Sequence record: MN585195.1
Strand: one strand, 5' to 3'
DNA from: Pseudomonas phage AUS531phi
DNA length: 48,430 nt
Positions 36,001-39,000 of this stretch are shown here, piece after piece. Every line of letters starts with the position of its first letter. Position 1 is the stretch's first letter. A program made the position numbers.

Positions 36001-39000
36001 AGGAGAGCGAGGACGCCGCCGCGCAGGCCGCCGCGCTGGAAGCCGAAACCGCCCAGGCGCCCAGCGCCGAGGCGATCGCCAACGGCGAACAGGCGATCAA
36101 CGAGCTGCGCCAGGCGCGTGACCGGCAGCAGGCCAAGGTGCAGTCGCTGCAGGAAGCGTTCAACGCCGCCGCGCAGCGCCAGGACGTCATCAAGCAGGCC
36201 GCCGACTTCCACGCCGAGGTCTGCGCCTGGAGCGCCCTGGCCGATGCCCTTTCCCCCACGGGCATCCCGGCGGAAATCCTGGCCGACGCGATCGGACCGG
36301 TGAACGAGCTGCTGCAGCGCCTGTCCGGCACCGCCGGCTGGTCGCCGGTACAGATCAGCGCCGACATCGACGTCACGTTCGGCGGTCGGCTGTACGGTCT
36401 GCTGTCCGAGTCCGAACGTTGGCGGTGCGACGCGACCATCGCCCTGGCCATCGCGACGATTTCCGGCCTGCGCCTGGCGCTGCTGGACCGCTTCGACGTG
36501 CTGGACGTCCCTGCGCGCACTCAGCAGGCGATGAAGCTGTTCCAGAGCCTGGCCGCCGGCGGAGAGATCGACACGCTGATCATCGCTGGCACGCTCAAAG
36601 AGCCGATGGGGAAGACACCGGCCTGGCTACAGGCGGCCTGGATCGACTCCGGGCAACTCGCCCACCAGCAGCAACAGGCTGCGGCCTGACCCTCGATACA
36701 GCGCCCCACCCGGGGCGCTATCTCTTCCAGCACGCACCGGACGCCGCCCTGTGGGCGACTTTCTCATGCCTCGTGGGCCGCCCGCGTCAGGCAGGGCGGC
36801 AAGTGGCTGCTCGCCCCGTGGATCATCCAGCACCTGGCGCCCCACCACGCCTACATCGAGCCATTCGGCGGCGCGGCCTCTGCGAGCATGCCAAGCCAAG
36901 TCCGGCATTCTGGGGTGCCAACTACAGCCCATCGGGTCTGAGGAGGGGAAATACCCTACCATTCCGGTTTAGCGTCAGTCGCGGGCTGGCATGGGTGCGA
37001 CAATCAATCCGGTGTCACTCGACTCTCCCTTTCGCAAGTCGATATCGAGAGCACCTTCCTGTGTTTCCAGAAGATGCGGTTGAGCGAGAGGCCGCAATGC
37101 CTCAAGGACATCGAGAATTGGAAACTCCCTTCGTTCCTCCAAGAATCGACAGACTTGTCTATCGGCAGGGCGCGGCAATGCAACTTCGCGCGGCACCATT
37201 GCATCAGCATGAATGAACTGCTGAACGATTTGCCAGCCCTGATAGAAAACCTCCATGAAAGATGCATCGTATGGGACAGGGGCAATGATTAAGTTTCGTT
37301 GATCGTCGCGACGGATGGCGTCGTTCCTTCCCTGCTGAGATGGAACAATCGCAAGCCTAAGTCCGCGTGCCCCTTCCAACTGTCTTGGATTGATTTTTAC
37401 AGTTGTTCCCACCCATTGATCAGTATCGGTGCGGCCAACAAATAGGTCAGCCTTCCACAGCCCATTAATTGATGCCGGAAGCAACTGACGCTCACCGCGC
37501 TTCCTGAATGCAGAAGCCACGGCATCTATGTGCTTCTTCAGCTTCACAGGACGACCCTTGCTGCCCGACAAGAGACTGGAGTCATCTGTTAACAATTCGC
37601 GCGCAGTCTGAATTAGCTGAACCGCCCCCGTCTTCTCTGCGCCAAATAGGATGGAGTCTGGATCCCCACCGCGAATCCGGCAGTGCTGAGTCAATGCTGT
37701 ATCAATGCGATCCAGAATGAGCTGATTTCCGTTCGAGATAGCATCATGTACGGCATACTCAAAACAGATGCCACAATCCCCATCACCCGGCCGATAAAGA
37801 CGAGGGAGTTGGCGAAGACGGACATTCTGGCCCCCACCTGCGTCCTGAACGGCCTCCTGCTTAATGGCATAGAACACACCCTGAAGAATAGGGATCACAA
37901 CCGCGATAAGGGCCTGGACCTCGTCCGCGACAGGGTTCCGTTGTATCTCCTTTCTCAAATCCATCAACCACTCTCCGTATGCTGAACACTGAAGGCTAAT
38001 CGCCTCTATTGGTTTAGGCGCCTTCAAACCAAACTGAACCATTGAAATAAGACCGGTTTCTGCCTTACCCCCTTTAAGACGTGCACCCGAGATGCAAGCG
38101 CATCAGCGCCGCCATGAACCCAATCTGCGATGCCCTCGGGGTAGCTGGCCAGAAGAACCTCGAAGCGATAGTCCCAGCGGCCTGATTACTCTTCTTAATC
38201 GACCTGAAGCGGTCCGATGTTCACCGAAGTTCCGCCGAGCTTTTGAACCAGATCAGTTGGGGCGTCCTCGGAAATCTCGACGACATGACCATAGACCAGG
38301 CCATCGTCGCTGGTCTCCGGGTAGTCATCAATGACCCACTGTTCGACTTCGTCCTTGGAGATCCCCAGCGCGTCTGCCAGCGCCTGGCTTCTTTTCTCTT
38401 CCAGTATCTCTTCCAGTTGTCTGTTGCTCATCTGACACCTATTTACCGGCCCCATGCCGGGCCATCCAACTCTAGTCCCAACGACATCACTGCGCCATCA
38501 CGCATGGCGCCGTGCATCGTCACGTTCGCGAAAAGGAACCCGCCGCATGACTTCCCTCAAGAAGCCCTCCTCGCTCGACTTCAAAACCCAGTACGGCCTG
38601 GCCCTGGACGACACCGACGACGCGATCATCGTCGACCTGTTCGCCGGCGGCGGCGGTGCCAGCACCGGTCTGGAAATGGGCCTGGGCCGCAAGGTCGACC
38701 TGGCCATCAACCACAACCCGGCGGCGATCAGCATGCACGAGGCCAACCACCCGCACGCCGAGCATCTGCCGACCGATGTCTGGGGCATCGACCCCATTGA
38801 GGCCACCAAGGGCGCGACCGTGGGCTGGCTGCACGCCTCACCGGACTGCCGGCACCACAGCCAGGCGGCCGGCGGCCAGCCGCGCAAGAAGGAAATCCGG
38901 GACCTCTCGTGGGTGGTGGTGAAGTGGGCCGGCAAGCTCCAGAAGCTCGGCCGCGGCCCCTGGGTCATCAGCCTGGAGAACGTGAAGCAGATCCTTCAAT

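Follow-up and report, generated by a model that had tools for sequence, protein, structure and literature searches.

The window analysed here, i.e. the whole 48,430-nt stretch of Pseudomonas phage AUS531phi (sequence record MN585195.1) to which all coordinates refer unless another locus is named, represents an integrated temperate phage of P. aeruginosa. Within it, a block of low-GC DNA between a gene for an SMC/Rad50-like ATPase and a gene for a C5-cytosine DNA methyltransferase (C5-MTase) carries two minus-strand genes, a large one encoding a member of the protein family PHROG 30306 (329 aa in our annotation) and a small one encoding an acidic protein of 78 aa. Alignment to related phages showed that a dam-gp12-gp11 stretch of the Epa33/F116 type was largely deleted at this position, with foreign low-GC DNA in its place. 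The large gene and the small open reading frame (ORF) were likewise shown to be two unrelated modules of foreign low-GC DNA, ~1.2 kb and ~0.3 kb long, on the opposite strand. The features of the locus, in order along the window, were as follows:

34944..36689, plus strand: SMC/Rad50-like AAA ATPase gene (Pfam AAA_23 and SMC_N), the conserved left flank of a variable slot
36695..36724, plus strand: GC-rich hairpin (inverted repeat I3, 13-nt arms, 4-nt loop) directly after the ATPase stop codon
36792..36884, plus strand: 5′ pseudogene fragment of dam (D12-class N6-adenine methyltransferase), ~codons 12–41, with neither a ribosome-binding site (RBS) nor a start codon
36885..36974: left boundary of the foreign module, with its 3′ trailer, GC 0.587
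36975..37964, minus strand: 329-aa gene of PHROG 30306, a predicted PD-(D/E)XK-like nuclease and candidate defence gene
37965..38086, minus strand: unique segment upstream of the 329-aa gene (putative leader/promoter), whose GGAG stands 8 nt ahead of the start codon
38087..38140, plus strand: remnant (18 codons, 54 bp) of a backbone gene similar to Epa33 gp11, located between the two minus-strand genes
38195..38431, minus strand: gene for the 78-aa acidic protein (module 38141–38467), with AGGTG before the ATG
38446..38546: conserved intergenic region between the divergent genes (identity 91% with PP9W, 89% with OQ658365)
38547..40640, plus strand: C5-MTase gene (Pfam DNA_methylase, 7e-24), the conserved right flank

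An earlier inspection of the letters without database searches (the sequence-only reading) had described a low-GC block with two co-oriented genes divergent from the C5-MTase gene, and this description was confirmed. In 300-nt windows, GC content was 0.51–0.55 from ~36950 to 38450 vs 0.65–0.74 on either side. Values per module were 0.532 for the large coding sequence (CDS), 0.528 for the inter-gene gap and 0.538 for the small-ORF module, compared with 0.625 in the DNA to the left and 0.662 in that to the right, and GC content at third codon positions (GC3) was 0.52 in the large gene vs 0.87 in the neighbouring ATPase gene. The DNA is thus foreign by composition, and both ORFs (36975..38042 and 38195..38431/38455) lie on the minus strand as had been stated. 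The length of 355 aa originally given to the large product was revised to 329 aa (36975..37964), with a most likely start at M27 of the ORF. This is where the PHROG profile starts (its match runs from residue 25), as do nearly all of the family's >2,400 homologs, which are ~329 aa long and span 92–93% of the 355-aa ORF; the M27 codon (ATG 37962–37964) also has a GGAG 8 nt upstream.

Fragments of two backbone genes were found on either side of the large-gene module. On the left, a Dam-like peptide (GGKWLLAPWIIQHLAPHHAYIEPFGGAAS) encoded at 36795–36881 on the plus strand scored 22.6 bits against Pfam MethyltransfD12 (cut-off 22), and the corresponding DNA was 94.5% identical over 91 bp to the intact dam gene of phage F116. 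The Dam N-terminal fragment recognised by the sequence-only reading therefore stands, and on these two matches the resemblance is one of true homology, not chance. Homology to dam ended at ~36884, so that only 93 bp of the 5′ part survive; no 3′ part of dam could be found in the window, and the right-hand F116 homology began only at the C5-MTase start. Because no in-frame start codon precedes it, the stub is a decaying pseudogene fragment. Base-resolution alignment revealed that, across the upstream hairpin and the leader, the window tracks F116 and Epa33; beyond them, 68 bp are cleanly deleted between direct repeats of GGCGGC (window 36770–36800 vs 1600–1667 of the F116 locus), a loss that took the dam RBS, the ATG and the first ~11 codons. 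This microhomology-type deletion came in addition to the replacement by which the remainder of dam was lost and is a distinct event.

On the right of the large gene, the gp11 stub was 89.6% identical to Epa33 over 48 bp (blastn), and its peptide (PRCKRISAAMNPICDALG) matched residues 146–163 of Epa33 gp11 at 78% (tblastn). The large-gene module (~36885–38086), bracketed by fragments of dam and gp11, the outermost genes of that stretch, thus replaced the interior of an Epa33-like block. An intact dam gene was present at the same position in the related phages F116 and Epa33, directly upstream of the C5-MTase gene, in agreement with the proposal that dam had been disrupted here. The proposal holds as far as the destruction of dam is concerned; simple insertion does not account for it, since the 3′ half of the gene is gone, and deletion plus replacement is indicated instead. 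A search for repeats across 36650–38600 detected neither terminal inverted repeats nor target-site duplications at the junctions, which speaks for illegitimate or mosaic recombination and against transposition; a passenger gene borne by a transposon or insertion sequence with terminal ends was rejected on the same search. The junction segment 36885..36974 had no match in F116, Epa33 or PP9W and contained no terminator-like site on the minus strand.

Plotting the homology of relatives along the window by megablast against 50,697 phage records placed these scars in a wider context. The phage relatives of the window were OQ658365, YMC/01/01/P52, phi297, PP9W, F116 and Epa33, and the homology of many relatives stopped at ~36700–36800 and restarted at 38446–38550. 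Left-flank DNA was 92–93% conserved in PP9W and OQ658365 up to ~36738–36800, and the C5-MTase gene was kept in PP9W, OQ658365, F116, Epa33 and others irrespective of what lay in the slot. The slot contents were:

F116: an intact 284-aa dam gene that overlaps the C5-MTase start
Epa33: dam with an 81-aa ORF and a 241-aa ORF (gp11), in the order dam-gp12-gp11-C5-MTase
phi297 and YMC-P52: an 876-aa N4/N6 methylase
PP9W: a minus-strand 108-aa ORF
OQ658365: a minus-strand 229-aa ORF and a PAPS-reductase-like gene

The last of these, a PAPS-reductase/DndC-like gene, occupied the same slot in some relatives (OQ658365, 4368–5426; phiC725A). The head of the DNA-modification module, from the SMC-like ATPase gene to the C5-MTase gene, was thus shown to be a recombination-prone accessory slot. 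By gene content as predicted from sequence, several kinds of DNA-modification gene (dam, a large N4/N6 methyltransferase, DndC-like) are exchanged there along with minus-strand cargo. Variable content between conserved flanks in related phages was found together with foreign composition, two of the properties by which a moron or hotspot is recognised. In F116-like phages, the int-proximal block phiC725A_01 to phiC725A_09 has been described as the most dissimilar part and attributed to recombination (PMC5217972). According to the phage record, the phiC725A methylase genes are annotated within that block. No description of the slot as a hotspot, or of the PHROG 30306 family, was found in the literature searched.

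The hairpin at 36695..36724 was kept in F116, Epa33 and PP9W and may be where the upstream transcription unit ends. The shared segment 38446–38546 is followed at a distance of 15–20 bp by the start of a minus-strand ORF in the window and also in PP9W and OQ658365, where the ORF is a different one; the segment would thus be a fixed anchor of the slot, presumed to hold divergent promoters. The C5-MTase itself probably starts at ATG 38547 (MTSLKK), not at ATG 38454, judging from relatives and from DNA homology, both of which begin at 38547. The 93-nt extension of its ORF (38454–38547) overlaps the conserved divergent intergenic region and is probably untranslated.

The two minus-strand genes had been regarded as a two-gene cassette, a claim that had to be given up. 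The DNA match of a metagenomic relative of the large gene (L017) was confined to 36979–37964, i.e. the CDS, that of a relative of the small ORF (L026) was confined to 38141–38467, and the gp11 remnant lies between them. Among 106 fetched loci, a homolog of the large protein was present in 94 and one of the small protein in 6, with both in none. The small acidic protein would accordingly be the product of an independent accessory gene and not a partner of the 329-aa protein. These observations also bear on a toxin-antitoxin pair, in which the small protein would act as antitoxin of a 329-aa toxin. Such a pair would suit the co-orientation of the genes, the acidity of the small protein and the location of both in foreign DNA; it is at odds with the 230-bp gap holding a backbone-gene remnant, with the separate DNA relatives, with co-occurrence in 0 of 94 large-family loci and 0 of 6 small-ORF loci, and with the lack of a conserved neighbour or partner of any kind, and we consider it very improbable.

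The small protein (pI 4.05; 18 acidic and 5 basic residues) had just 6 homolog clusters, located in other prophage early regions ahead of different cargo, and all homologs start with MSN. Its AlphaFold2 (AF2) model, at a predicted local distance difference test score (pLDDT) of 84, had the order alpha-alpha-beta-beta-alpha-beta, and Pfam matches of helix-turn-helix (HTH) type (YdaS, P22 Cro, CI; E 0.003–0.17) were far under cut-offs. In loci L010–L013, the small-ORF relative is directly upstream of a gene for a 303-aa TIR protein, which is followed by an SRA/ScoMcrA gene; in L009 (5001–5246) it belongs to a string of small ORFs divergent from a C5-MTase gene, and in L026 (764–1009) it is convergent with one. 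A function in anti-restriction or regulation is conceivable, given how often its relatives lie near C5-methylase and SRA/ScoMcrA genes. The suggestion that it is a controller protein found no support in an acidic, alpha/beta protein with sub-threshold HTH matches and no link to the large family.

The 329-aa protein matched PHROG 30306 with an E value of 1.9e-104 (residues 25–352 vs profile positions 17–358 of 364), a family labelled ‘unknown function’. No match to it was obtained in Pfam, PADLOC-DB v2.0.0 or NCBIfam, nor did 26 divergent family members, scanned singly, have any Pfam, PADLOC or NCBIfam match. More than 2,400 family proteins, with ~60% identity across phyla, were present in a collection of 5.8 billion sequences; the 524 representatives at 50% identity were nearly all single-domain proteins of ~330 aa. 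In a set of one genome per species (185,579 species), 183 stretches were confirmed by tblastn, and the best 80 of these 183 spanned at least 15 phyla at an identity of at least 53% (53–63%). The family was thereby shown, as far as homology searches reach, to be sparse, very widely distributed, strongly conserved and uncharacterised. A few actinomycete plasmids also carry relatives, closer than the single phage relative described next.

Among the 50,697 phage records, phage H66 was the only deposited phage with a relative of the large protein (H66_007, 29% identity), so that the large ORF is not a core phage gene, and no relative carried the same two genes beside an intact, unrelated upstream gene; thus neither of the two outcomes that the sequence-only reading had named as refuting it was observed. 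H66_007 (locus 2831–4803) is also antisense to early genes, is preceded by an unrelated 87-aa ORFan and had zero matches in PADLOC-DB v2.0.0; the 46-aa H66_008 that follows it is annotated as a C5-methylase domain remnant. The H66 locus may represent a second disruption of a methylase gene beside a member of PHROG 30306. H66_006 was considered as a counterpart of the small ORF and dismissed for lack of similarity.

Genomic neighbourhoods were counted in 80 species-level loci (the best 80 of the 183 stretches) by clustering every ORF up to 6 kb away on either side. Apart from the family, the three biggest clusters consisted of antisense shadow ORFs of the family gene itself. The commonest true neighbour, a response regulator, occurred in 7 of 80 loci, followed by serine recombinases in 5 and type I HsdM in 3. 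A search with ten methyltransferase seeds (classes C5, D12, N4/N6, HsdM and Eco57I) returned a methyltransferase-like ORF within ±6 kb in 6 of 80 loci, distributed over four classes and including the three type I HsdM. Among the 80 loci there was neither a recurrent neighbour nor a recurrent methyltransferase cluster; therefore, the gene would work alone or with universal host factors. By these counts the family gene is always solitary. The contexts in which it was found included the following:

Stenotrophomonas, lambda-like prophage: between tail fibre and integrase
Pseudomonas sp. 21, prophage end at the host junction: after lysis genes, Dam, SRAP and UmuDC
E. khazarica: after lysis genes and SRAP; on a related contig, TIR and caspase genes are close by
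P2-like prophages: directly after gpD
Paenibacillus: beside a BsuBI/PstI restriction-modification (R-M) system and recombinases
Melittangium: among housekeeping genes

In Melittangium boletus (4405–8261), the family gene and a DUF6998 gene are flanked on one side by a FAD-oxidase gene (456 aa) and on the other by a 159-aa ORF that also matches FAD-oxidase_C, an arrangement that may reflect an insertion that split or duplicated a host gene. A site directly after gpD of P2, as occupied by a family relative, was also considered as the published P2 hotspot and discarded, the published one being gpA-gpQ (PMC9122126).

The sequence-only reading had offered an R-M-like unit of controller and endonuclease as one possibility, with the 329-aa protein as a Type II-like restriction enzyme that the phage C5 and N6 methylases would protect and the small protein as its controller (C) protein. 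Divergence from the C5-MTase gene, a hint of a nuclease-like fold and the location of the distant H66 homolog near C5-MTase sequences would fit such a unit. The C5-MTase gene, however, is kept in relatives that lack the large gene, and the neighbourhood counts given above yield no recurring methyltransferase; the small protein, for its part, is acidic, has a non-HTH model and never accompanies the family. An R-M-like unit was thus abandoned as scarcely credible.

A role in DNA damage or repair, with a structure- or lesion-specific nuclease acting together with SOS-type prophage cargo (UmuDC, SRAP), was weighed against the same neighbourhoods. In Pseudomonas and Xanthomonadales prophages, the closest relatives were repeatedly found beside SRAP (YedK-like) and/or umuDC genes, which looks like clade-specific synteny. 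The association is limited to one clade and to local synteny, the sole IMS/UmuC neighbour noticed among the 80 loci was that of Pseudomonas sp. 21, no IMS was present among the 25 most frequent families, and the slot of the window contains neither umuDC nor SRAP; a repair function is accordingly rated as quite improbable.

Among 145 nearest-neighbour ORFs, no family had more than 4 matches, the highest counts including Mrr_cat (4) and NA-iREase1 (3). PADLOC matches among the nearest neighbours were PDC-S02, type IV-A DinG, MADS components, PifA, LmuB, PD-T4-6 and R-M parts. The idea of a defence unit at this locus was thus partly retained: a defensive role of the large gene is plausible from such contexts, while the R-M-like and toxin-antitoxin forms of the idea fail.

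The distribution of the family could also reflect a selfish mobile gene, i.e. a free-standing homing-type endonuclease or cryptic element of no benefit to the lysogen. It would explain the patchy spread over many phyla at high identity, the gene disruption seen here and possibly also in H66 and Melittangium, and the nuclease-like signature. Several results oppose it: the terminal inverted repeats and target-site duplications of a mobile element are missing, insertion contexts are unrelated and share no common target gene, DNA homology with relatives extends only over the CDS, and a serine recombinase was found in only 5 of 80 loci. We regard this explanation as improbable.

An AF2 model of the large protein, built from a 56-sequence alignment, reached a pLDDT of 85 and a predicted TM-score (pTM) of 0.84, and Foldseek returned nothing for it in PDB or BFVD. 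Down to ~25% identity, the near-invariant residues were G65, E69, S104, E110, L162, D173, L174, K190 and F236, of which only E69, S104, E110, D173 and K190 are polar. In the model, E69 lies at the start of a helix and E110 at the end of a strand; strand 172–178 opens with D173, and K190 comes after strand 183–189, such that D173 and K190 sit on consecutive strands of a beta-hairpin in a D-x14-(T/S)-V-K pattern. From this geometry, the 329-aa protein is slightly favoured to be a PD-(D/E)XK-like nuclease, with E69, E110, D173 and K190 as its candidate active site.

In enzymes of the Cfr10I/NgoMIV group, the middle acidic residue of the PD-(D/E)XK site is displaced. The Cfr10I/NgoMIV/BsaWI/AgeI group resembles the 329-aa family in having an Asp at the start of a strand, x-V-K at the end of the next strand and S/T at the usual acidic position, and the other conserved Glu of the family could complete the site. 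Unlike these enzymes, the 329-aa family has no sequence-profile similarity to the group and no cognate methylase, and its cross-phylum conservation is far above that usual for Type II enzymes.

The protein may also be no nuclease at all: another activity (anti-defence factor, regulator or lysogenic-conversion protein) carried by a novel fold would be consistent with the lack of any significant fold or profile match (Foldseek against PDB and BFVD; Pfam, PADLOC, NCBIfam and PDB sequences) and with a cross-phylum identity of 53–63%, atypical of restriction enzymes. We consider this unlikely.

Two further leads on function were followed and dropped. In a phmmer search of the 355-aa ORF against PDB, similarity to TAL effectors (TALE) reached an E value of 3e-9 (residues ~63–150), which turned out to be a sum over TALE repeats: every single stretch had an i-Evalue >1, family profile A1 gave E 0.066 and profile A3 none, so that, apart from this artefact, the two family profiles had no PDB sequence match. 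The TAL-effector score of the 36975–38042 ORF is a trap for automated annotation. Fusion partners were likewise uninformative, the sole ‘fusion’ (P0129, metagenomic, 916 aa) being probably a gene-calling read-through that joins a Wzz/BY-kinase (CbiA/ParA-type ATPase) to the family domain via a low-complexity, repetitive proline/valine-rich linker; other longer family members had no Pfam domains. The 230-bp gap ahead of the large gene was also searched for a conserved element of RNA or DNA; the idea was rejected, since upstream regions of homologs could not be aligned and no Rfam match was obtained.

Collectively, the best reading of the locus is a prophage moron with a candidate single-gene defence nuclease, set in a replaced dam block, and we hold it with evenly balanced confidence. 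Since the 329-aa gene on the minus strand runs antisense to the lytic early operon and lies near the conserved intergenic segment 38446–38546, it is somewhat probable that the prophage expresses it, in the manner of a moron. Its product might then defend the lysogen against other phages, a step whose chances we put at about even from the contexts of its relatives, either by cutting invading DNA in a type-IV-like manner that needs no methylase or by an abortive response.

Several points weigh against this interpretation. Sequence-profile searches against Pfam, PADLOC v2, NCBIfam and PDB sequences, divergent members included, connected the family with no nuclease or defence family, and T/S188 stands where the canonical (D/E)xK triad has its acidic residue. 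Restriction-type enzymes do not usually show such high conservation across phyla, which could be a sign of another activity. The defence role is argued from guilt by association only, and the share of immediate neighbours that are defence-related (~10%) is a figure without matched background and hence qualitative. Additionally, a consensus scan identified no sigma-70 promoter and no minus-strand terminator for the minus-strand genes.

Phage defence hotspots are known at gpA-gpQ in P2-like phages and in P4 (Rousset et al. 2022, PMC9122126), and morons such as Tab have been described in P. aeruginosa prophages (PMC10884400). The slot resembles such moron and defence hotspots in having a fixed position with differing cargo between flanks conserved in relatives, and the cargo of the window is foreign, short, partly of defence type (small-ORF relatives precede TIR) and oriented against the lytic operon. 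In contrast to the P2 and P4 hotspots, it heads the methylase module of D3/F116-type Pseudomonas phages and is not next to cos. With Type IV enzymes (Mrr, McrA/ScoMcrA, PvuRts1I-like), the 329-aa gene shares its solitary state without a methylase partner, its mobility, its occurrence in islands and, sometimes, a location beside Mrr-type genes. It differs from them in that the protein has no modified-base reader (SRA, Mrr-N) and no Mrr_cat, HNH or GmrSD domain recognisable with Pfam, PADLOC or NCBIfam, and in that the host phage itself encodes two DNA methylases.

A broader proposal goes further and is correspondingly tentative; we see it as possible and somewhat doubtful. PHROG 30306 might constitute a new self-sufficient, single-protein anti-phage nuclease with its own sensing and an unusually constrained sequence, spread by prophages and plasmids, and the head of the methylase module in D3/F116-type phages might be an undescribed defence/counter-defence exchange slot for DNA-modification genes and defence cargo. 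If the defence nuclease were confirmed, it would represent a compact, one-gene, very widely transferable anti-phage system, and a function would be available for PHROG 30306, a family without a Pfam, NCBIfam or PADLOC model despite its 524 clusters at 50% identity. The locus is in any case a clean natural example of temperate phages trading self-protective DNA-modification genes for accessory cargo at one recombination-prone position, which matters for forecasts of host range and lysogen immunity where P. aeruginosa phages are used, or met, in therapy. It is best described as a well-documented candidate, not a demonstrated system, consisting of accessory and probably defensive prophage cargo.

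The remaining features of the window concern its phage setting:

25553-26410: S24 repressor
40535..41443, plus strand: second methyltransferase-like gene (class I S-adenosylmethionine-dependent methyltransferase; weak Pfam matches to DUF6094, Methyltransf_25, Eco57I and N6_Mtase)
44860-45927: tyrosine integrase, followed by a host-like Bax1-I/YccA gene

The F116 homolog of the gene at 40535..41443 carries the annotation DNA adenine methyltransferase. Three more low-GC islands, down to 44% GC, were seen in the window at 2200–4400, 25400–27600 and 28400–30400. The first contains a minus-strand gene for a SPOR-domain protein (3308–4072), the second the S24 repressor and a DUF6731 protein (25553–27351), and the third a GNAT acetyltransferase and a 193-aa protein of no assigned family (29151–30273). 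None of the three had a PADLOC match, and they are probably additional morons or regulatory regions. Very long antisense ORFs were also observed over real plus-strand genes, at 34008–36212 (minus strand, 734 aa) and 38838–40532 (minus strand, 564 aa); both are the usual shadow ORFs of high-GC DNA.

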